Below are positions 2,492-55,623 of a DNA stretch of 64,000 nucleotides, piece after piece; position 1 is the first letter of the stretch; every line of letters starts with the position of its first letter. This stretch comes from an uncultured Ignavibacteriota bacterium. Its GTDB lineage: Bacteria; Bacteroidota; Ignavibacteria; UBA10030; UBA8401. Location of the stretch: contig CAISDA010000040.1 of the NCBI GenBank assembly GCA_903884005.1, forward strand, positions 1,539 through 65,538. Reading direction: 5' to 3'. The notes beneath the pieces are model-generated. The model saw nothing but the letters and a program-made list of their open reading frames with translations, ran no database searches and had not been told where the DNA came from. The position numbers and the translations under genes were made by a program.

Positions 2492-2680
2492 GGTGTGCGA
2501 TCTTTCGATAAGGTGTGGAAAGAGAACGTGCTATATCCTATAGGATGCAGGCTGCGGGTGAAACGATTCATTCGGTTGACGGCCTGCTGTTCTCCCGGAC
2601 ACGGGAGTGTTCGGTGCGCATGTACGGTGGAACCCCGGGCACGGTTCGCGTGCGTGGCGTGCAATGCGCGTGCTGCATTG

Positions 2681-2733
2681 AATGAGAAAAAGAGTTTAAA
2701 TGAGAGAAAGAGTTTGAACGAGAAAGTGTTGAC
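2681..2733. repeat. Tandem direct repeat, 18-bp unit x about 2.8 (AATGAGARAAAGAGTTTR)
   Basis: Units aatgagaaaaagagttta / aatgagagaaagagtttg / aacgagaaagtgttgac lie immediately upstream of a -35-like TTGACT. Confidence 0.6.
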
Positions 2734-2757
2734 TTAAAAAAAAATATTAAGTATTTT
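2729..2757 (+). promoter_or_regulatory. Candidate sigma70-like promoter (TTGACT-N17-TATTTT) reading toward the carbamoyltransferase operon
   Basis: TTGACT at 2729-2734, a 17-nt A-rich spacer, TATTTT at 2752-2757. The same architecture recurs upstream of prs (50473-50501) and the nif3-like gene (41058-41086). Confidence 0.35.
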
Positions 2758-3139
2758 GCTCACGAACATTAGAGGACGATTCACACCACGGGGACGAATG
2801 TTCACGAGAGCCTCACCCATACCCGTCGAAGTATACTGCTTCCAGTGAAGTGCATCAGAGTCCGTTCCGCACGACGGGGACTCAGACCGCGAAGCACTTC
2901 AGCCTAGATCGATCCTACCCGGGATCATGTTCTGCATTGCATCCGGTAGTGAATTCAATACAAAATACACCACACTGCGCTCTCCGGCTGCGGCATTGAC
3001 CCGGACTGAGCACCGCGTGTTCAAGAGTAGGGGTATTCTGTTTCTATCGCCGGTGTTTTTCCGGTACATCAACCAACACGCGCTGCGCTCGCCCATGAGC
3101 GCCGGGCAGGCAGTTGACCATCAACCAAGGAGCATCATT

Positions 3140-4060
3140 GTGAAGGCACAAGATTTTCTTTCCGTTCGTGACATGGATGCAGAAGAAATTCATGAAACGT
3201 TCCGCATTGCGCGGGACATGAAGGCTGACCGTAACAAATATTCCGCCGCTTTAAAGGGAGAAACGCTCGCGCTCATTTTCGAGAAGCCGTCGCTGCGCAC
3301 GCGCACATCGTTCGATGTGGGCATTCAGCAGCTGGGCGGATTTTCGCTCTATCTGTCTCCCGCAGAGATCAGCCTCGGCAAGCGCGAATCGGTGCACGAT
3401 GTGGCGAAGAACCTCGAGCGGATGGTGCAGGGCATCATGATCCGGACGTTCGCCCACCAGATCGTGGTGGATATGGCGAAGTATGCGTCGATCCCCGTGA
3501 TCAACGGGCTGACCGATTATTCCCATCCCTGTCAGGCGATGGCCGATTTTTTGACCATCCTCGAACACAAGAAGACCCTGGAAGGGCTGAAACTATGTTA
3601 TGTCGGCGACGGAAATAATGTCGCGCACTCGCTGATGTTCGCGGGCGCGCTGCTCGGCGTCAGCGTCACGGTGTTGTGTCCGCCTGATTTCGAGCCGGAC
3701 CCCGCGGCGCTCACGCAGGCCGTTGAGGACGCGCAAAAAACAGGCGCCGTGATAGAGGTTGTTCATGATCCGATCGAGGGAGTGAAGAACGCGGATGTGA
3801 TCTATACGGATGTGTGGGCCTCGATGGGACAGGAAAGCGAAACGGAAAAACGGAAAAAAATATTTCAGCCGTACCAGGTCAACAGCGGGTTGATGGCGCA
3901 TGCGAAAAGCGATGCGTTGTTCATGCACTGTCTGCCGGCGCACCGGGGCGACGAAGTCACGGATGCGGTGATCGACTCGCCGCAGTCCGTCGTGTTCGAC
4001 GAGGCGGAGAACCGCCTGCATGTGCAGAAGGCGATCATGTACCAGCTGATGAAACCATAA
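3140..4060 (+). CDS. argF: Ornithine carbamoyltransferase (anabolic ArgF or catabolic ArcB)
   Basis: STRTR carbamoyl-phosphate motif, HPCQ and HCLPAHRG ornithine-binding motifs. GTG start is preceded by AAGGAG at -7. An alternative upstream ATG at 3095 has no RBS. Confidence 0.88.
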   Translation: MKAQDFLSVRDMDAEEIHETFRIARDMKADRNKYSAALKGETLALIFEKPSLRTRTSFDVGIQQLGGFSLYLSPAEISLGKRESVHDVAKNLERMVQGIMIRTFAHQIVVDMAKYASIPVINGLTDYSHPCQAMADFLTILEHKKTLEGLKLCYVGDGNNVAHSLMFAGALLGVSVTVLCPPDFEPDPAALTQAVEDAQKTGAVIEVVHDPIEGVKNADVIYTDVWASMGQESETEKRKKIFQPYQVNSGLMAHAKSDALFMHCLPAHRGDEVTDAVIDSPQSVVFDEAENRLHVQKAIMYQLMKP

Positions 4061-4090: not shown

Positions 4091-5032
4091 ATGCCTAAAA
4101 CGGCACTCATAGCAATCGGCGGCAACTCGCTCATTCGCGCAGGCGAACGCGGGACGATCGACGAACAGCTCGGCAACGCGCATGCGACAGCCAGAAGCAT
4201 GGTCCAGTTGGTGGCGCGGGGCTGGCGTCTGGTGATCACACACGGCAACGGCCCGCAGGTGGGCGCGGCGCTGCTTCGCTCCGAGCGCGCTGCCGGCGAA
4301 GTCTACTCGCACCCGCTCGACGTCTGCGTAGCGACAACGCAAAGCGAGATCGGCTACATTATACAGCGGGCAGTGGAATACGAACTGCGCCAGATCGGCC
4401 TGTTCACGCCCGTGATGACGGTACTGACGCAGGTGCGCGTGGACGAACACGATCCGGCGTTCCTGCATCCTACGAAACCGATCGGGCCGTTCTATTCGAA
4501 GGCTGACGCCGAAGAAAAGGAACGGACCCTGGGATGGAGCATCGTTGAAGATGCATCCCGCGGCTATCGACGTGTGGTTCCGTCTCCTGAGCCCGTTGAA
4601 GTGTTCGAGCAGGACATTATCCGGAAAATTCTTGACCTGGGCATGATCGTCATCGCCGTCGGAGGCGGGGGAATACCCGTCATAGAAAAAGACAATTATC
4701 TTGTGCTCGGCAGGGAAGCGGTGATCGACAAGGACCGCGCATCGTCACTGCTCGCATCAGAACTCAACACGGACCTCTTTATTATCAGCACCGACGTGCA
4801 ACAGGTGTTTATCGACTATAAGCAGCCGACGCAGCGGGCGGTCGGGAACACGACGGTGAGTGAAATGGAAGGGTACCTGGCGCAAAAGCAGTTCGCCGCG
4901 GGCAGCATGGGACCGAAAGTGGAATCGGCGATCCGCTACATCAAAAAAGGAGGGCAGGAGGCGATCATCACATCGTTCGAGTGCCTTCTGGACGCGGTCG
5001 ACGGAAAAACCGGCACGCATGTGTTTCCCTGA
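4091..5032 (+). CDS. arcC: Carbamate kinase
   Basis: N-terminus MPKTALIAIGGNSL; VITHGNGPQVG motif; amino-acid kinase fold; 313 aa. Directly downstream of the OTC gene. Confidence 0.9.
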   Translation: MPKTALIAIGGNSLIRAGERGTIDEQLGNAHATARSMVQLVARGWRLVITHGNGPQVGAALLRSERAAGEVYSHPLDVCVATTQSEIGYIIQRAVEYELRQIGLFTPVMTVLTQVRVDEHDPAFLHPTKPIGPFYSKADAEEKERTLGWSIVEDASRGYRRVVPSPEPVEVFEQDIIRKILDLGMIVIAVGGGGIPVIEKDNYLVLGREAVIDKDRASSLLASELNTDLFIISTDVQQVFIDYKQPTQRAVGNTTVSEMEGYLAQKQFAAGSMGPKVESAIRYIKKGGQEAIITSFECLLDAVDGKTGTHVFP

Positions 5033-5083: not shown

Positions 5084-6001
5084 ATGAAACTCACCCATGT
5101 CATCGAATCTCAACAGTTCACCGTTCCTTCGTTGATGGAATTATTTGACCGCGCCCAGCTGATGGAAAAGATCGCTGCCCGGGGCGGCACCCGCGACTAC
5201 GAGAACAAGATCATGGCGACGCTGTTCTACAAATCGTCGACGCGGACGCGCTTCTCGTTCGAAGCCGCGATGTACCGGCTCGGCGGGAAGGTGCTGGCGA
5301 CCGAGCACGCCAACGAATTTTCTTCGGAGATCGACGGCGGGCAGCTTGAGGATACCATCCGCATCATTGCGAATTGCAGCGATGTCATCGTGCTTCGGCA
5401 TACGGATGAAGGCGCGGCAAAACGTGCGTCGCTCGTGTCGACCGTACCCGTCATCAATGCGGGGGAAGGCGCAGGTGGGCAGCATCCGACGCAGGCGCTC
5501 CTCGACCTCTACACGATCTACAGGGAATGCAAGGCGCTCAACGGGCTGTCCGTTGCACTCATGGGCGAGTTGGACAACGGACGGACCGCGCGGTCGCTGG
5601 CGTACTTGCTCAGCAAATTCGACCGAGTGAAATTGTATTTTATCGCGCCCTCGGAGATACAGATCAAGCCGGACATCCTGGCATATCTGGACAGCCACCG
5701 GGTGCAGTATGAACTTGCCGAGAGCCCGGAACATATTCTCTCGCATGTCGATGTCGTGTATCGCACGCACATTGACCGCGAACGTCTTCAGCGCCGCGAC
5801 ATCGACCTGACGCCATACAACATCAACGCCGGCGTGCTCTCGACGATGAAATCCAATGCGATCATCATGCATCCGCTGCCGCGCTCGGTCGAGATCGATC
5901 CGGCTGTGGACAACGATCCGCGCGCCGTGTATTTTCGCCAGTCGCGCAACGGCCTGTTTGTGCGCATGGCGCTGTTGACAATTCTTTTCGATCAGGGATA
6001 A
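5084..6001 (+). CDS. pyrB: Aspartate carbamoyltransferase-type transcarbamylase (PyrB-like catalytic chain)
   Basis: STRTR, HPTQ and HPLPR motifs are diagnostic of the ATCase branch rather than OTC (HPCQ / HCLP); 305 aa. GGAGAG RBS. Confidence 0.8.
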   Translation: MKLTHVIESQQFTVPSLMELFDRAQLMEKIAARGGTRDYENKIMATLFYKSSTRTRFSFEAAMYRLGGKVLATEHANEFSSEIDGGQLEDTIRIIANCSDVIVLRHTDEGAAKRASLVSTVPVINAGEGAGGQHPTQALLDLYTIYRECKALNGLSVALMGELDNGRTARSLAYLLSKFDRVKLYFIAPSEIQIKPDILAYLDSHRVQYELAESPEHILSHVDVVYRTHIDRERLQRRDIDLTPYNINAGVLSTMKSNAIIMHPLPRSVEIDPAVDNDPRAVYFRQSRNGLFVRMALLTILFDQG

Positions 6002-6063: not shown

Positions 6064-7260
6064 ATGAATACGAACGACTATATCGCCCTCGAAGAAGAAT
6101 ACGGCGCGCACAATTATCATCCACTTGATGTGGTGATCGAACGGGCTGAAGGCGTGTGGGTGACGGATGTCGAGGGCCGCCGGTATCTCGACTGCCTCGC
6201 GGCATACTCGGCGCTGAATCAGGGGCATTGCCATCCGAAGATCATGGAGGCATTTGTTGCCCAGGCGAAGAAGGTGACTCTGACAAGCCGTGCGTTCCGT
6301 AACGATCAACTCCCGCTCCTTTATAAGATGCTGCACGACATGACGGGATATGAGATGTCGCTGCCCATGAACTCGGGCGCCGAGGCGGTCGAGACGGCGA
6401 TCAAAGCCGCACGCAAATGGGGCTATACGGTGAAGGGGATCCCCGAGAACAAGGCGGAGATCATCTGCGCCGCCGATAATTTTCACGGGCGGACGACAAC
6501 GATCGTGGGATTTTCGACGGAGGAACAGTACAAAAAAGATTTTGGTCCGTTCACGCCGGGATTCCGCATCGTGAAATTCGGCGACATCGATGCCCTGAAG
6601 AGCGCCATCACGCCGAACACCGCCGCCTTTCTCGTGGAGCCTATACAGGGAGAGGCGGGGATCATTGTGCCGCCCGAGGGGTATCTTCGTGAGGCGGCGC
6701 GGATCTGCAAAGAGCAGAACGTGCTCCTGATCTGCGACGAGATCCAATCGGGCCTCGGCCGCAGCGGCAAGCTCTTCGCATTCGAGTACGACAACATTCG
6801 TCCCGACATGGTCGTCATCGGCAAGGCATTATCAGGAGGTTTCTATCCCGTTTCCGCGGTACTTGCGGACAACAACATCCTCGGCGTCTTCAAGCCCGGC
6901 GAGCACGGCTCGACATTCGGCGGCAATCCGCTTGCCGCGGCCGTCGCCTGTGCCGCGCTGCGCGTGCTTGCGGACGAGGATTTGATCGCGAAATCGTTCG
7001 AGCTCGGCGCATATTTTATGGCGAAGCTCCGCGCGATCGACAGCCCGCATGTCAAGGAGATCCGCGGCCGCGGACTGTGGATAGGATTTGTGCTCGACAC
7101 GCCTGCGCGCCCGTACTGCATCGCGCTGATGAACGAAGGAATTCTCTGCAAGGAGACGCACGAGAATGTCATCCGGTTCGCGCCGCCGCTGGTCATCACG
7201 CGGGAAGAGATCGACTGGGCATGCGAGCGCATTCAAAAAGTTGTCTATGCGATTCACTAA
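6064..7260 (+). CDS. rocD: Ornithine--oxo-acid aminotransferase (class III PLP aminotransferase)
   Basis: OAT-like N-terminus (EYGAHNYHPLDVV), PLP-lysine region (VVIGKALSGG), 398 aa. Confidence 0.85.
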   Translation: MNTNDYIALEEEYGAHNYHPLDVVIERAEGVWVTDVEGRRYLDCLAAYSALNQGHCHPKIMEAFVAQAKKVTLTSRAFRNDQLPLLYKMLHDMTGYEMSLPMNSGAEAVETAIKAARKWGYTVKGIPENKAEIICAADNFHGRTTTIVGFSTEEQYKKDFGPFTPGFRIVKFGDIDALKSAITPNTAAFLVEPIQGEAGIIVPPEGYLREAARICKEQNVLLICDEIQSGLGRSGKLFAFEYDNIRPDMVVIGKALSGGFYPVSAVLADNNILGVFKPGEHGSTFGGNPLAAAVACAALRVLADEDLIAKSFELGAYFMAKLRAIDSPHVKEIRGRGLWIGFVLDTPARPYCIALMNEGILCKETHENVIRFAPPLVITREEIDWACERIQKVVYAIH

Positions 7261-7323
7261 TAATGAACGATCCTCTTTTCGCACTAAAGAGTGAAGCACG
7301 TCAATTATCATTAGGAGCAATCA

Positions 7324-8658
7324 ATGACGAATGCACAGCGAATCACGACGATCATCGTCGGTGCCGCAGGCCGCGATTTTCATAATTTCAATATGATCTA
7401 TCGGGGCAATGAAGCATATGATGTCGTCGCCTTTACGGCCGCGCAGATTCCGAATATTGCAGGCAGAAAATATCCCGCTTCGCTGGCCGGCTCGCTGTAT
7501 CCCTCCGGCATCCCGATCTTCGAGGAACGCGACCTCGAAAAGCTCATCGCAAAATTCAACGTGGAAGAGGTCGTCTTCTCGTACAGCGATGTCACCTATA
7601 ACCACGTCATGAGCATCGGCTCGCGGGTGACGGCGGCCGGCGCGCATTTCAAGCTGCTGAGCGCCGCTCAGACCATGATCAAAAGCACCAAGCCCGTCGT
7701 GTCTGTGTGCGCCGTGCGCACAGGCAGCGGTAAAAGCCAGACAACACGCCGTGTCTCCGCGATCCTGCAGAACCTGGGATACAGTGTGGCGGCAGTGCGT
7801 CATCCGATGCCGTACGGAGACCTTGAAAAACAAAAAGTGCAGCGCTATGCCACACTCGGTGATCTGAAGAAGCACAAATGCACGATCGAGGAGATGGAAG
7901 AGTACGAGCCGCACATTGTGAGCGGCACCATCATCTATGCCGGCGTCGATTACGCGGCGATCCTGGAGCAGGCGGAGAAGGATGCCGACGTGATCATCTG
8001 GGACGGGGGGAATAACGATCTGCCGTTCTATGCGCCCGACCTTCATATCGTCGTAGCCGATCCGCTTCGCACGGGCGACGAGTTGAAATATTTTCCGAGC
8101 GAGGCGAACCTCCGGCTCGCCGATGTTGTCATCATCAACAAGATCGATTCGGCCCTGCCGGACAATGTGACGAAATTGCGCGCCAACATACGCAGCGTCA
8201 ACACAACGGCGAAGATCATCGATGCCGCATCGCCGATCGCGCTCGAGGCGAGCCACACGATCGCCGGCAAGCGCGTGCTGGTGATAGAGGACGGGCCGAC
8301 CTTGACGCACGGTGAAATGAAATTCGGCGCAGGCACAGTCGCCGCGCTTAAATTCGGCGCCGGCGAGATCGTCGATCCGCGTCCGTACGTGAGCGGCGAG
8401 ATGAAGAAAACCTATGAGACCTATCCGAAGATCGGCGTGCTGCTGCCGGCCATGGGGTACAGCAACAAGCAGATCAAAGACCTTGAAGCAACGGTGAACC
8501 GCGTGCCCTGCGATGTTGTCATTATCGGCACGCCGATCGATCTCAGCCGCATCATCAAGATCACGAAACCGGCGCTTCGCGTTACGTACGACCTTCAGGA
8601 GATAGGCCAGCCCGACCTGCTGGCTGTGCTCAGCGACTTCGCCAGAAAAATACACTAA
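7324..8658 (+). CDS. P-loop NTPase, cyclic 2,3-diphosphoglycerate synthetase (cPGS)-like family, function unknown
   Basis: Walker A (VCAVRTGSGKSQTT) and Walker B-like (DVIIWDGG), 444 aa, AGGAG RBS. Operonic with the genes at 3140-7260. Family assignment is from memory of the domain architecture, not a search. Confidence 0.5.
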   Translation: MTNAQRITTIIVGAAGRDFHNFNMIYRGNEAYDVVAFTAAQIPNIAGRKYPASLAGSLYPSGIPIFEERDLEKLIAKFNVEEVVFSYSDVTYNHVMSIGSRVTAAGAHFKLLSAAQTMIKSTKPVVSVCAVRTGSGKSQTTRRVSAILQNLGYSVAAVRHPMPYGDLEKQKVQRYATLGDLKKHKCTIEEMEEYEPHIVSGTIIYAGVDYAAILEQAEKDADVIIWDGGNNDLPFYAPDLHIVVADPLRTGDELKYFPSEANLRLADVVIINKIDSALPDNVTKLRANIRSVNTTAKIIDAASPIALEASHTIAGKRVLVIEDGPTLTHGEMKFGAGTVAALKFGAGEIVDPRPYVSGEMKKTYETYPKIGVLLPAMGYSNKQIKDLEATVNRVPCDVVIIGTPIDLSRIIKITKPALRVTYDLQEIGQPDLLAVLSDFARKIH

Positions 8659-8661
8659 CGC

Positions 8662-9258
8662 ATGCCAAAACTCCCGGACACGATCATTTTAGCCTCACGG
8701 TCGCCGAGGCGGGCGCAGCTGCTGCGCCAGATCGGCGTCGCATTTGAAACATCGGTATGCGATATCGATGAACTCTTCGACCCCGCGATGACACCCGTAG
8801 AAAATGCGCGGGCGCTTTCCTATATGAAGGCGGCAGATGTCGCCAGCCGCTACAGGCGGGGTATCGTGCTCGGATCCGATACGATCGTCGTGCTGGACGG
8901 CATGCTGCTGGGAAAGCCCGTGTCGGAGGAGGATGCCCGGCGCATGCTGCGCACGCTCAGCGGCAGAACGCACACCGTCGTTACCGGATTTGCGCTTGTT
9001 GATGCGGAGTCAAAAAAATCATATATTGATTGCGAACAGACCGATGTTACATTCCGGTCGCTTGACGACGACGAGATCGCCGCATATGTTGCCGCAGGGT
9101 CGCCCATGGATAAAGCGGGGGCGTACGGCATCCAGGACGATTTCGGCGCCGTATTCGTCGAACGCATCGCGGGTGATTACTACACCGTGGTCGGCCTGCC
9201 ATTATCGAAAGTTTACTGTGCGTTACAGCAGTTCATGACATTACTACAAAAAGGATAA
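8662..9258 (+). CDS. maf: Maf-like nucleoside triphosphate pyrophosphatase
   Basis: N-terminus IILASRSPRRAQLL and overall Maf/Ham1 signature; 198 aa. Confidence 0.9.
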   Translation: MPKLPDTIILASRSPRRAQLLRQIGVAFETSVCDIDELFDPAMTPVENARALSYMKAADVASRYRRGIVLGSDTIVVLDGMLLGKPVSEEDARRMLRTLSGRTHTVVTGFALVDAESKKSYIDCEQTDVTFRSLDDDEIAAYVAAGSPMDKAGAYGIQDDFGAVFVERIAGDYYTVVGLPLSKVYCALQQFMTLLQKG

Positions 9259-12359: not shown

Positions 12360-12446
12360 CGGAGAGGGTGGGATTCGAACCCACGGAACGCTTTCACGTT
12401 CACACACTTTCCAGGCGTGCCAGTTCAACCACTCCTGCACCTCTCC
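12360..12446 (-). tRNA. tRNA-Ser (anticodon GGA), class II
   Basis: On the minus strand the sequence reads GGAGAGG...CCTCTCC+G. Anticodon arm is CACGC-CTGGAAA-GTGTG, with a long variable arm and T-arm CGTGG-GTTCGAAT-CCCAC. Confidence 0.85.
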
Positions 12447-12491: not shown

Positions 12492-12578
12492 CGGAGAGGG
12501 AGAGATTCGAACTCTCGATACCCTTACGAGTACACTAGTTTTCGAGACTAGCTCTTTCAACCACTCAGACACCTCTCC
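12492..12578 (-). tRNA. tRNA-Ser (anticodon CGA), class II
   Basis: Minus-strand sequence GGAGAGGTGTCTGAGTGGTTGAAAGAGCTAGTCTCGAAAACTAG...GAGAGTTCGAATCTCTCCCTCTCCG; anticodon loop CTCGAAA. Confidence 0.85.
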
Positions 12579-13311: not shown

Positions 13312-13340
13312 ATCACCATTTATATTTTTGGAGTGCTGCA

Positions 13341-14627
13341 ATGAATCATGAAATAGTCGAATCTTTTTCCGGACTCGTGCGTGAAAAGAGCATAGATAAA
13401 GATATTCTCGCAGGTATCGTGGAAGATATCTTCGGTATGATGGTCCGCAAGAAATTCGGCCCGACCGCCAAATTTGATGTTGTCGTCAACATGGATAAAG
13501 GCGACATTGAAATTTATCTCGAGCGCGAAGTCGTCGAAGTGGTCGAAGACCCCGTGCGGCAGATCGATCCGGCGACGGTGAAAAAGATCTCCGGCGAAGA
13601 CATGGACATCGGCGAAGACTATGTTGAAATTCTGCCGCTGGAAGATTTCGGGCGCAGGCTCATCACGACGGCGAAACAGAACTTCACGCAGCGCGTGAAG
13701 GAAATAGAAAAGGAACTGGTCTTCAACGAGTACAACAACTCGCTCGGAGAGATCATCGTGGACGAGGTCTACCAGATCCGCAACAACGACATCATGGTGA
13801 TGCACAACAAGACGGAACTGCTCCTGCCCAAGAGCGAACAGATATTCAAAGAGCGGTATAAAAAGGGCGACACGGTCCGCGCGATCGTGAAGGAAGTGCG
13901 CAAGAACGCGACAAACCCGACGGTGATCATTTCCCGTTCGGCTCCGCAGTTTTTGGAGCGCCTCTTCGAAATTGAAATTCCCGAGATCTACGACGGCATC
14001 ATCGAGATCAAGTGCATTGCACGCGAACCGGGCGAGCGGGCAAAGGTGGCGGTCGAGTCGCACGATGACCGCATCGATGCCGTCGGCGCCTGCGTCGGCA
14101 TGAAAGGCGTCCGCATTCATGCGATCGTCCGCGAATTGAACAATGAGAACATCGACGTCATCAATTACAGCGACGAACCGGCAGTGTTCATTCAGCGCGC
14201 CCTTGCGCCGGCGAAGCTTAAAAGCATACAAATTGACCATGACACCAAGAAAGCAACCGTGCTGGTGGACGAAGATCAGGTATCGCTGGCGATCGGCAAA
14301 GGCGGTCAGAACATACGACTGGCCAGCAAGCTGAGCGGGTACGACCTGCAATTGGTGAAGGAAAGCAGCGAATACGACATCGATCTCGAAGAATTCAAGG
14401 AAGAGATCGGCGACGAAATCCTCGCGAAGTTCACCGAGAACGGCTATTCGACGGCCAAAGCGGTGATCGATGCGTCCGTTGCCGAACTGGTGCGCACGCT
14501 GGATCTTCCGCAGGAAAAAGTTGAAGAGATTGTAACGTTGATTAAGACAGAGTTTGAAGAAGCCGAAGAAGAAGACGACGACGAATCCTCCGAGCAGGAA
14601 GAAGAGGAGACGAGCCAGCCATCGTAA
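13341..14627 (+). CDS. nusA: Transcription termination/antitermination factor NusA
   Basis: NusA N-terminal domain plus S1 and KH domains, with an acidic C-terminal tail. Confidence 0.95.
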   Translation: MNHEIVESFSGLVREKSIDKDILAGIVEDIFGMMVRKKFGPTAKFDVVVNMDKGDIEIYLEREVVEVVEDPVRQIDPATVKKISGEDMDIGEDYVEILPLEDFGRRLITTAKQNFTQRVKEIEKELVFNEYNNSLGEIIVDEVYQIRNNDIMVMHNKTELLLPKSEQIFKERYKKGDTVRAIVKEVRKNATNPTVIISRSAPQFLERLFEIEIPEIYDGIIEIKCIAREPGERAKVAVESHDDRIDAVGACVGMKGVRIHAIVRELNNENIDVINYSDEPAVFIQRALAPAKLKSIQIDHDTKKATVLVDEDQVSLAIGKGGQNIRLASKLSGYDLQLVKESSEYDIDLEEFKEEIGDEILAKFTENGYSTAKAVIDASVAELVRTLDLPQEKVEEIVTLIKTEFEEAEEEDDDESSEQEEEETSQPS

Positions 14628-14696
14628 TGTAACGGAATCGTCCGGCCGTCTGTGATCTAACGCTGTTTCGCACGACACTTAACTCAAAGGAATGCA

Positions 14697-43718: not shown

Positions 43719-43837
43719 CTTCATCTGCCGGCGCCTGCCCTCGTTGGCATAGCGCCCCAAACACAGAATTAATTCATTCATCTCTCATACTCACGCTGAC
43801 GTCACGGCTATCCACACCGGCAGACGGTGTGCGCACG

Positions 43838-44340
43838 TCAGGCAATCGCGTTAGTTGCATTTGTCAATTAAGGAGGAAAGTCCGAACTCTCTTCTCTTCT
43901 TTCACAAGAAGACAAGGGGCACGGTGCCGGATAACATCCGGGGGGAGCGATCCTACGGAAAGTGTCACAGAAAATATACCGTCCCGTCTGTACGACGGGA
44001 TAAGGGTGAAATGGTGCGTCCTGCAATCAAGCGGGATTAAAGTAAGAGCGCACCGCGTTTCCAGCAATGGAAACGGCATGACAAACCCCACCGAGAGCAA
44101 GACCATGTAGGTTCCGTTGTTCTCCCCGCGTTGAAAGCGCGGGAGAACGAAGAGATGCCCACTCAACGCTGTGCTCGACGCGCGGTGACGGAACGGGTAG
44201 GTCGCTTGAACCGCGCAGCAATGCGTCGGTCAGAGAAATGATTGCCTCTTCCCCCTTCCGCTGTGTGTCTATGGCGGTTGTAGGAACAGACAGAATTCGG
44301 CTTATCGACGCGCCGCTTCGGCTCGCCGGTCTGGAATGCC
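43838..44340 (+). ncRNA. rnpB: RNase P RNA (bacterial type A); boundaries approximate (+/- 30 nt)
   Basis: Recalled type A conserved blocks: AGGAGGAAAGTCCG (P4 5' strand); GGGCACGGTGCCGG and ATAACATCCGGGGGG; AGGGTGAAATGGTGCG...GTAAGAGCGCACC; ACAAACCCCACCGAGAGCAAG; ACAGAATTCGGCTTAT (P4 3' strand). Confidence 0.8.
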
Positions 44341-54134: not shown

Positions 54135-54164
54135 GTTCCCTGCATGGCTACGTTTGAATTCTCA

Positions 54165-54199
54165 CCTGACTGTCGGTTTCGACAGTCAGGTTTTTTTTT
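54165..54199 (+). terminator. Intrinsic terminator after rplI
   Basis: cctgactgtcgGTTTcgacagtcagg followed by TTTTTTTTT. Confidence 0.65.
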
Positions 54200-54228
54200 C
54201 CCGACAACGAAGAAAGGAAGTACCGGCT

Positions 54229-55623
54229 ATGGCTCACACCAAATTACTCTGGACCGGACGGTTCTCGCAGCCGCTGTCTGAGATCGCGCTTCGCTTCTCC
54301 TCCAGCATCGAATTGGATAAGGAAATGTACCGGGAGGATATTCTCGGCAGCATTGCGCACGTCGAAATGCTCGCCTCGGCAAAAATATTGACCGCGGCCG
54401 AAGCCAGACGCATCCGCACGGCGCTCAACGCGATCGGCACGGAGATAGAGAACGACAAGCTCGCCCTGACCTGGGACAAAGAGGACATTCACACCGCGGT
54501 CGAACAGCGCTTGACGCAAAAGATCGGCGCGCTCGGCGGCAAGCTCCATACCGCGCGCAGCCGCAACGACCAGGTCGCGCTCGACGAACGCCTCTACCTC
54601 CGCGGAGCCATACGCGAATTGCAGAAACTCATCGTGCAGCTGCAGCGCGTGCTGCTCTACAAGGCTGAGAAAAATTTCAGCACGATCATGCCGGGCTACA
54701 CCCATATGCAGCGCGCCCAGCCCGTGCTTCTCTCGCACCACCTGCTCGCCTATGCCGGCATGTTCGAACGCGACTTTGAGCGCCTGAACGACGTCTACAA
54801 GCGCATCAATAAGATGCCGCTCGGTTCTGCAGCGCTGGCTGGCACCTCGTTCGCAATCGACCGCGCTTCGGTGGCGAAAAAATTGGGCTTCGACGGCATC
54901 GTCGAGAACAGCATGGACGCCGTGAGCGACCGCGACTATCTCATCGAATACATCGCCGCATGCAGCATCACTATGATGCATCTCAGCCGCTTTGCGGAGG
55001 AACTCGTGCTCTGGAGCTCGCAGGAATTCGCATTCGCCCGCACCGACGACGCCTACACGACCGGCAGCAGCATCATGCCGCAGAAAAAAAACCCCGACAT
55101 GGCGGAACTCGTCCGCGGCAAAGCGGGACGCGTCTTCGGCGATCTTGTGAATCTTCTCACGACAATGAAGGGCCTGCCGCTTGCCTACAACCGCGACATG
55201 CAGGAAGATAAGGTCCCGATGTTCGGCACCACCGCCACAACGCGCCAGTGCCTGTTCATCTTCTCGCATATTCTCGTGCACACGCAGTTCGACGCGAAAC
55301 GCTTCGAGGAAGAATTGAAGAACGATTTTCTCACCGCCACTGAACTCGCCGACTTCCTCGTGAAAAAAGGCATGGCGTTCCGCGACGCTCATGCGGCAAC
55401 GGGAAAAGTCGTCGCCTTCTGCATCCAGCATCAACGGTCAATGGCCGACCTGACGCTCGACGAGTTGCAGAAATTCTCCGACAAATTCGATGTGTCATCG
55501 CAGGCGCTGCTCGATCCGCGGCACAGCATCGAAAACAAAAAATCCGCCGGCAGCACGTCGTCGCAGGAAGTGAAGAAACAGATCGTCCATTGGATGAGAA
55601 TATTGAAAGCCAGGAAGGTGTAA
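54229..55623 (+). CDS. argH: Argininosuccinate lyase
   Basis: Fumarase/ASL family motifs (TGSSIMPQKKNPD). Start trimmed to MAHTKLLWTGRF with a GAAAGGAAG RBS. Confidence 0.9.
   Translation: MAHTKLLWTGRFSQPLSEIALRFSSSIELDKEMYREDILGSIAHVEMLASAKILTAAEARRIRTALNAIGTEIENDKLALTWDKEDIHTAVEQRLTQKIGALGGKLHTARSRNDQVALDERLYLRGAIRELQKLIVQLQRVLLYKAEKNFSTIMPGYTHMQRAQPVLLSHHLLAYAGMFERDFERLNDVYKRINKMPLGSAALAGTSFAIDRASVAKKLGFDGIVENSMDAVSDRDYLIEYIAACSITMMHLSRFAEELVLWSSQEFAFARTDDAYTTGSSIMPQKKNPDMAELVRGKAGRVFGDLVNLLTTMKGLPLAYNRDMQEDKVPMFGTTATTRQCLFIFSHILVHTQFDAKRFEEELKNDFLTATELADFLVKKGMAFRDAHAATGKVVAFCIQHQRSMADLTLDELQKFSDKFDVSSQALLDPRHSIENKKSAGSTSSQEVKKQIVHWMRILKARKV

Follow-up and report, generated by a model that had tools for sequence, protein, structure and literature searches.

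Arginine synthetase (ArcE) of the hyperthermophilic archaeon Thermococcus kodakarensis, the product of TK2200, catalyzes the interconversion arginine + ADP + Pi <-> citrulline + ATP + NH3, with an equilibrium constant of ~10 at 80 C (Michimori, Yokooji & Atomi, PNAS 2024, PMC11032458). The protein is specific for L-arginine and prefers ADP, with GDP giving 8.4% of the activity obtained with ADP. It was required in vivo to turn arginine into citrulline in T. kodakarensis, and the reversible reaction also supported growth of this archaeon on citrulline. The same report described that arcE homologs had earlier been annotated as hypothetical proteins or putative GTPases weakly similar to cyclic 2,3-diphosphoglycerate synthetase (cPGS), that arcE lies near arcB and arcC in some genomes, and that arcE-bearing taxa already include Bacteroidota (PMC11032458). 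A follow-up report showed that pyrimidine synthesis in T. kodakarensis obtains carbamoyl phosphate from the ArcE pathway (PMC13260591, 2026). In the cPGS of Methanothermus fervidus, an N-terminal domain is joined to an LpxK-like P-loop kinase domain, and the gamma-phosphate is transferred to the substrate before Pi is released (PMC10690619). In this study, we analyzed a 64-kb stretch of contig CAISDA010000040.1 from an uncultured Ignavibacteriota bacterium (hereafter, the window) and found that the fifth gene of a closely spaced series near its left end encodes a protein of 444 amino acids (aa) that is, with high probability, a bacterial ArcE, most likely acting in the catabolic direction. The enzyme family and the pathway have been known since 2024; the window gene adds a bacterial member and is no new system.

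Orthology of the window protein to archaeal ArcE

The open reading frame (ORF) of the window gene starts with ATG, as given by the ORF list and its translation. The published primers for TK2200, listed in the supplementary material of PMC13260591, served as probes for TK2200 orthologs. The 5' primer had no match in the genome contigs searched, possibly owing to an engineered start codon or to the absence of the genome there. The 3' 22-mer, which is shared by two independent primers, matched a single contig, from a Thermococci metagenome-assembled genome. The gene at this site (L001:2399-3745, minus strand) encodes 448 aa that begin with MAEKKRKRVVI and end with KNCEKLKK, and the primers themselves translate to MAEKKKKRVLI (5') and KNCEKLKK (3'). 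BLASTP aligned the window protein with the L001 protein at 60% identity and 76% positives, with 0 gaps over 441 aa (567 bits). A search with the L001 protein then led to P0123, which represents a 201-member cluster (at least 90% identity) of Thermococcus and Palaeococcus proteins. The first 11 residues of P0123, MAEKKKKRVLI, are identical to the TK2200 primer translation, and its C-terminus is again KNCEKLKK. The window protein aligned with P0123 at 60% identity with 0 gaps (570 bits). The similarity to Thermococcus ArcE is full-length and collinear.

The nucleotide-binding motifs of the family were also present. GSGKS occupies residues 134-138 of the window protein, within the letters VRTGSGKSQT, and the Walker B-like DVIIWDGG occupies residues 222-229. 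An alignment of 56 sequences from Bacteroidota, Thermotogota, Synergistota, Thermococcales, Aciduliprofundum, and Asgard archaea had a mean column identity of 71% and ~100 invariant columns. These columns include R132, T133, G134, G136, K137, and S138 as well as W226-DGGNND-232, in bacteria and archaea alike. WDGGNND was specific enough to be used as a scan pattern for the family. No Pfam or NCBIfam family scored above its cutoff for the window protein; therefore, these libraries hold no ArcE model.

We next consider the predicted structure. An AlphaFold2 model of the window protein, built from the 56-sequence alignment, had a pLDDT of 92.6 and a pTM of 0.91. In a Foldseek search of this model against the PDB, the top match was cPGS 8ORU (E 1e-17, 15% identity, TM 0.42), followed by LpxK 4EHY (E 1.6e-9, 13% identity, TM 0.69 on the target) and, further down, by DUF1611 proteins and SIMIBI NTPases (MinD, HypB, SRP). 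LpxK 4EHY is the structure from which the ArcE authors predicted the nucleotide cofactor (PMC11032458), and the P-loop kinase fold reported for the TK2200 protein is likewise seen in the window model. In a sequence search of the PDB, cPGS and HypB came up as remote matches, and no structure of an ArcE was present.

From the gap-free 60% identity, the invariant active-site motifs, the fold, and the conserved gene context, we infer that the window protein has arginine synthetase activity. A first-pass annotation of this DNA had described the protein as an uncharacterized P-loop NTPase, and both of its nucleotide-binding motifs were confirmed here. Its guess of an ATP-dependent ligase was essentially correct, the family being arginine synthetase. 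The statement that bacterial homologs have no assigned function is outdated by the 2024 report on ArcE (PMC11032458). In the profile search that it proposed, no family scored above its cutoff, and of the two families that it named, CPGS was related only remotely and G3E fell below the cutoff.

Gene neighborhood and direction of the pathway

The window gene is preceded by arcB, arcC, a gene similar to aspartate carbamoyltransferase (ATCase), and rocD, with intergenic gaps of 30-63 nucleotides (nt) from arcB to arcE. The arcB, arcC, and rocD neighbors were all identified at the equivalog level in an NCBIfam scan. The mechanical arcB ORF of 377 aa carries an N-terminal extension of ~71 aa without a domain, its Pfam domains begin at residue 76, and arcB orthologs are 295-308 aa long. 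The true start of arcB is probably the GTG at 3140, behind AGGAG.

The genes suggest a complete pathway. ArcE would convert arginine, ADP, and Pi to citrulline, ATP, and NH3, providing the entry step and the first ATP. ArcB would then form ornithine and carbamoyl phosphate from citrulline and Pi, and ArcC would use carbamoyl phosphate and ADP to form carbamate and the second ATP. RocD would convert ornithine to glutamate semialdehyde/pyrroline-5-carboxylate. The predicted net yield is two ATP per arginine. As to the chemistry, the papers state no route; the one proposed here is modeled on cPGS and other P-loop amidoligases. For synthesis, transfer of phosphate from ATP to the ureido oxygen of citrulline would give an O-phospho-isourea intermediate, whose phosphate would then be displaced by NH3. 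For catabolism, an attack of Pi on the guanidinium carbon would be accompanied by the departure of NH3, and ADP would take up the phosphoryl group.

The gene order arcB-arcC-ATCase-like-(rocD)-arcE was the same in three other Bacteroidota/Ignavibacteriales genomes (L003-L005), whose flanks are unrelated. A metagenome scan with the family alignment yielded 80 diverse arcE loci with 59-70% identity, and their neighbors were found by tblastn of the window operon proteins against the locus flanks. arcC and/or arcB was adjacent to arcE on the same strand in 24 of these 80 loci, and in 14 of the 38 loci that have at least 1.5 kb on both sides. Carbamate kinase was the most frequent partner of arcE (19 loci), and ornithine carbamoyltransferase (OTCase) was found in 11. 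The arcE-linked loci showed at least eight gene orders, and the full five-gene module was present in two of them, L010 and L041. Since linkage recurs in several independent arrangements, it is strong evidence of functional coupling of arcE to arcB and arcC. The genomic association with these two genes that is known for the ArcE family was observed for the window gene as well.

These results bear out the functional tie to carbamoyl-phosphate enzymes that had been noted from the sequence, and the neighborhood comparison proposed with it found the linkage both in L003-L005 and in the metagenomic loci. The further statement that arcE is the terminal gene holds for the module conserved across genomes but not for the window, in which maf and a gene for a B12-binding protein follow downstream. 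maf is probably co-transcribed with arcE in the window, outside the conserved module. The B12-binding gene begins 3 nt after maf and has no mutase large subunit nearby. Both genes stand behind arcE only in the window lineage, also on contig L002, and maf did not adjoin arcE in L003-L005 or in any of the 80 metagenomic loci. Membership of either gene in the system was considered and rejected because the adjacency to arcE is not conserved.

The catabolic direction is the most likely one for the window protein, given that its operon also encodes carbamate kinase and the aminotransferase and that the window contains argH. argH, a gene of the same genome, is the conventional last step of arginine synthesis, and the presence of argG/argH was read by the ArcE authors as pointing to a catabolic role of ArcE (PMC11032458). 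Of this pair, argH alone was seen in the window. No arginine deiminase or amidinotransferase was found among the ~49 ORFs of the window, and neither argG nor carAB was seen in it.

The same activity could also be used anabolically, as a one-step route to arginine that consumes citrulline, ATP, and free ammonia in place of, or in addition to, ArgG/ArgH. T. kodakarensis grew on citrulline by means of this reversible reaction, OTCase is bidirectional, and the authors proposed such a role where carbamoyl-phosphate synthetase, arcB, and arcE are present without argG/argH. However, the window arcE shares its operon with the genes for carbamate kinase and ornithine aminotransferase, both catabolic steps, argH is present in the window, and carbamate kinase is the partner most often found with arcE across lineages. 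We therefore consider an anabolic role improbable, although it is the best placed of the alternatives to catabolic ArcE.

The second carbamoyltransferase and other readings of the protein

The operon carries a second carbamoyltransferase, which passed the TIGR00670 cutoff, although its PRK00856 score of 253 was below the cutoff of 263. Its closest match was the plant PyrB 6YPO (E 8e-91). In comparison with E. coli PyrB, the carbamoyl-phosphate motifs STRTR, R105, HPTQ, R167, and HPLPR are intact. The aspartate-site residues are altered, with R229 replaced by H, Q231 by D, and K84 by D. A motif census was made of 120 homologs with 72-93% identity to the operon protein. Of the 116 residues counted at the position of Q231, 109 were Asp, 5 Asn, 1 His, and 1 Tyr, and none was Gln. 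The position of R229 held Arg in 64, His in 50 (~43%), and Lys in 1, and that of K84 was unconstrained among the close homologs. An exhaustive search of representatives showed TRIRPER in the closest of them (66% identity) and the canonical TR(I/V)Q(K/R)ER in essentially all others, at 55% identity or less. The ATCase-like gene was also found in L003:6743-7660, L004:6443-7360, L005:7769-8686, L010, and L041. From these substitutions, the operon protein may be a transcarbamylase of altered specificity.

A different arrangement was observed in L072 and L089, two unrelated metagenomic loci in which a canonical ATCase gene (YMTRIQKER) comes right after arcE, ~1.4 kb downstream. Together, these two loci suggest a recurrent arcE-pyrB link. 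The pairing is consistent with arginine-derived carbamoyl phosphate feeding pyrimidine synthesis (PMC13260591). It is thus attractive to regard the second carbamoyltransferase simply as a PyrB that would tap arginine-derived carbamoyl phosphate, which fits the report on T. kodakarensis (PMC13260591); for the clade found in the operon, this view is weakened by the loss of Gln231. That the five-gene operon represents a new variant of energy-conserving arginine/ureido catabolism, operating through a transcarbamylase of new specificity, is a tentative idea that we think rather unlikely. If it were true, a second ureido compound might enter ATP formation by carbamate kinase through this transcarbamylase; alternatively, arginine-derived carbamoyl phosphate might be diverted to a non-aspartate acceptor.

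The second carbamoyltransferase also bears on the substrate of the window protein itself, which might be an ArcE-family enzyme shifted to another guanidino/ureido pair and partnered with this atypical enzyme. A conserved operon that holds a second carbamoyltransferase with an altered second-substrate site is in keeping with such a shift, as is the lack of a bacterial ArcE assay in the literature searched. The window protein is nevertheless 60% identical to the L-arginine-specific archaeal enzyme, with ~100 positions invariant across the family. A canonical OTCase is encoded in the same operon, and the same arcE clade was also found with only arcC/arcB. A shifted substrate is very unlikely on these grounds.

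Several observations weigh against the assignment of the window protein as a catabolic ArcE. The sequence comparison rests on very close Thermococcus orthologs of TK2200 and not on the exact TK2200 sequence; the 15 members listed for the P0123 cluster do not include T. kodakarensis. The characterized enzyme comes from a hyperthermophile, and the literature searched yielded no assay of a bacterial ArcE. The genes arcA, argG, and carAB were sought only within the 64-kb window. arcE stands alone in Fervidobacterium (Thermotogota), a Synergistota bacterium, and Aciduliprofundum; the support from gene context is lineage-dependent, and the lone genes match the dispersed pathway genes of T. kodakarensis. 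In addition, the operon holds an atypical carbamoyltransferase.

The first-pass annotation had called the protein cPGS-like. This description held at the level of the superfamily, in which cPGS is the nearest solved fold, and failed at the level of the family, since the window protein is not a cPGS. Like cPGS, it is built of two domains, one of them an LpxK-like P-loop kinase domain, which points to superfamily kinship and not to family membership. Of the cPGS Walker A motif GxxGxGK[T/S], the window VRTGSGKS keeps all but the first Gly, which is Val. The ArcE family profile matched cPGS with an E-value of 3.3e-10 over only ~110 residues, and phmmer of the window protein against cPGS gave E 0.0024-0.26 with partial coverage; full-length, family-level similarity was not found. 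That the window protein is itself a cPGS would agree with the source annotations "cyclic 2,3-diphosphoglycerate synthase", the name that NCBI gives to many homologs, and with the closest solved structure. Against this stand the 15% identity and TM-score of 0.42, the short profile match, and neighbors that are arginine-catabolism genes, none of them for glycerate-phosphate. The name is also carried by the Thermococcus cluster, and experiments have identified the T. kodakarensis ortholog of this cluster as arginine synthetase. Cyclic 2,3-diphosphoglycerate is restricted to hyperthermophilic methanogens according to the cPGS paper (PMC10690619). We regard this identity as having almost no chance of being right.

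A metallochaperone role had also been suggested for the window protein. As a G3E-type GTPase (CobW/HypB/UreG/MeaB-like), it might perhaps serve the B12-binding mutase subunit two genes downstream. A weak Pfam cobW match, weak HypB matches, an NKID motif at residues 272-275, and the nearby B12-binding gene would fit, but the suggestion was not upheld and its probability is negligible: the cobW match (PF02492) scored 18.4 bits, below the cutoff of 20.7, and covered profile positions 117-179 of 180, the last third only; the CxCC motif is absent from the sequence; the D of NKxD is not invariant, with NKEE and NKED in Thermotogota and Odinarchaeota members; the TK2200 protein prefers ADP, GDP reaching 8.4% of that activity (PMC11032458); and, apart from the same-sequence contig L002, no other arcE locus examined has the B12-binding neighbor. 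Both the cPGS and the G3E-chaperone identities were rejected, the former as a remote relative at 15% identity and the latter for its sub-cutoff cobW score and the missing CxCC.

The names in current databases follow these distant relationships. More than 8,000 homologs of the window protein were found in a large protein database, and many of them, 75-94% identical and from Bacteroidota/Ignavibacteriales, are labeled "predicted GTPase" or "cyclic 2,3-diphosphoglycerate synthase". The Thermococcales orthologs (P0121-P0145 and the P0123 cluster; Thermococcus, Pyrococcus, Palaeococcus) are named "cyclic 2,3-diphosphoglycerate synthase" or "GTPase" in NCBI/UniRef. This looks like a misannotation propagated over thousands of entries. 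Since homologs are mislabeled, metabolic reconstructions of peptide-fermenting bacteria miss the ATP-yielding ArcE step. With arginine synthetase, the textbook account of how arginine and citrulline are interconverted had to be revised; the enzyme itself was demonstrated in one hyperthermophilic archaeon only. A close ortholog fixed in a complete arcB-arcC-rocD-arcE operon would imply that bacteria of the Fibrobacteres-Chlorobi-Bacteroidetes (FCB) group could gain two ATP per arginine, not one. The window ArcE is an obvious first bacterial candidate for biochemical confirmation.

Features of the window and comparison with known systems

The features of the window are listed in Table 1.

Table 1. 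Positions of genes, motifs, and other features in the window.
Feature	Position	Strand	Evidence or remark
arcE, arginine synthetase (ATP-forming arginine deiminase) ortholog, 444 aa	7324-8658	+	60% gap-free identity to Thermococci orthologs
Walker A/P-loop VRTGSGKS, residues 131-138	7714-7737	+	R132, T133, G134, G136, K137, S138 invariant
Walker B-like strand and signature DVIIWDGGNND, residues 222-232	7987-8019	+	W226 to D232 invariant
Shadow ORF antisense to arcE, 444 aa, non-gene	7321-8655	-	Inverted GC pattern, no family match
arcB, ornithine carbamoyltransferase, 306 aa	3140-4060 from the probable start (mechanical ORF 2927-4060)	+	NF001986 437.6 bits (cutoff 306)
arcC, carbamate kinase	4091-5032	+	TIGR00746 374.4 bits (cutoff 358.25)
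ATCase-derived carbamoyltransferase, 305 aa, non-canonical aspartate site	5084-6001	+	TIGR00670 278.8 (cutoff 236.95)
rocD, ornithine--oxo-acid aminotransferase	6064-7260	+	TIGR01885 552.5 bits (cutoff 378.4)
maf nucleotide pyrophosphatase	8662-9258	+	3 nt after arcE
Stand-alone B12-binding domain protein, methylmalonyl-CoA mutase small-subunit type, 133 aa	9262-9663	+	TIGR00640 162.4 bits
Family-B DNA polymerase (Pol II-like), 782 aa	9822-12170	-	PF00136 76 bits; NF004421 79 bits (cutoff 570)
Non-coding region upstream of arcB	2492-3139	+	Promoter-like site, direct repeat, leader ~380 nt
argH, argininosuccinate lyase	54154-55623	+	Pfam Lyase_1 269.5 bits, ASL_C2 82.7 bits
Two 87-nt tRNA genes	12360-12446, 12492-12578	-	Length suggests long variable arms
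Bacterial class A RNase P RNA	43831-44320	+	Housekeeping RNA

An ORF of equal length lies opposite arcE, and the first-pass annotation had suspected it to be an artefact. This ORF exists, and its artefactual nature was borne out by the GC pattern, codon usage, and the reading frames of orthologs. The GC content of arcE by codon position was 0.58/0.40/0.74, and the third-position GC of the neighboring genes was 0.65-0.75; the arcE value of 0.74 matches all neighboring genes, and the plus strand is unambiguously the coding strand. The antisense frame showed the mirror image (0.74/0.40/0.58), a composition rich in Arg, Asp, and His, and no family match in Pfam or NCBIfam scans. Since it is in exact codon register with arcE, it can be closed only by sense TTA, CTA, or TCA codons. 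arcE has 0 of these codons, against 3.5 expected from the 23 other genes of the window (P(0) ~0.03). In every one of the seven arcE orthologs examined, they number 1-10 and interrupt the antisense frame; therefore, this frame is not conserved. The antisense ORF is a codon-usage shadow, and it was rejected as a gene for its inverted GC pattern, the missing family match, and the frame broken in 7/7 orthologs. A second full-length antisense shadow ORF of 452 aa was observed at 13320-14678 on the minus strand, opposite nusA (13341-14627, plus strand). nusA is likewise without TTA, CTA, or TCA codons, and its antisense ORF is the same artefact.

Upstream of arcB, an AT-rich promoter-like site, TTGACT-17-TATTTT, was found at 2729-2757 as a consensus match only. 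A direct repeat, AAAGAGTTT(A/G)AA, lies just upstream of this site in the 2683-2760 region and could be a binding site for a regulator; the leader of ~380 nt comes after the site. No RNA family of Rfam matched the operon or its upstream region. The gene for the family-B DNA polymerase converges on the end of the operon, and it encodes a divergent PolB in a genome of the FCB group. The rest of the window is ordinary chromosome, with nusA-infB-truB-ribF-pnp, purL/purQ, and ruvCA, and it also encodes proteins with type IX secretion system tails, which are typical of the FCB group.

Four known enzymes can be compared with the window protein. LpxK (tetraacyldisaccharide 4'-kinase of Aquifex aeolicus, PDB 4EHY) shares the atypical P-loop kinase core with ArcE. 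However, it acts on lipids as a membrane-associated kinase, it lacks the N-terminal domain of ArcE, its chemistry is unrelated, and the identity is 13%. The cPGS of M. fervidus (PDB 8ORK/8ORU, 9SXB) is the nearest solved fold and, like the window protein, combines ~120-130 N-terminal aa with a kinase domain. Like cPGS, the window protein would be ATP-dependent and would transfer a phosphoryl group to the substrate before Pi is released. In contrast, the identity is only 15%, the similarity is confined to the region from Walker B to a beta-strand, and substrate, pathway, and taxonomic range are all different.

Arginine deiminase (ArcA) of the classical arginine deiminase pathway resembles ArcE in what it does. 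It also converts arginine to citrulline and NH3 upstream of arcB and arcC, with similar operon partners. The fold of ArcA is unrelated (amidinotransferase superfamily), and its reaction is hydrolytic, irreversible, and conserves no energy, which gives 1 ATP per arginine versus 2 with ArcE.

The TK2200 ArcE is the closest of the four. It has ~448 aa versus 444 aa in the window protein, the P-loop and WDGGNND signatures are invariant, and both proteins have LpxK and cPGS as predicted fold relatives, an association with arcB/arcC, and a history of misannotation as "GTPase / cPGS". The hosts differ, as the window comes from a Bacteroidota/Ignavibacteria-like bacterium that is presumably mesophilic and TK2200 from a hyperthermophilic archaeon. 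In the window, the genes of the pathway are packed into a single operon, whereas TK2200, TK0871, and TK2158 are dispersed in T. kodakarensis. Relative to the T. kodakarensis pathway, the window operon adds rocD and the atypical ATCase-like gene.

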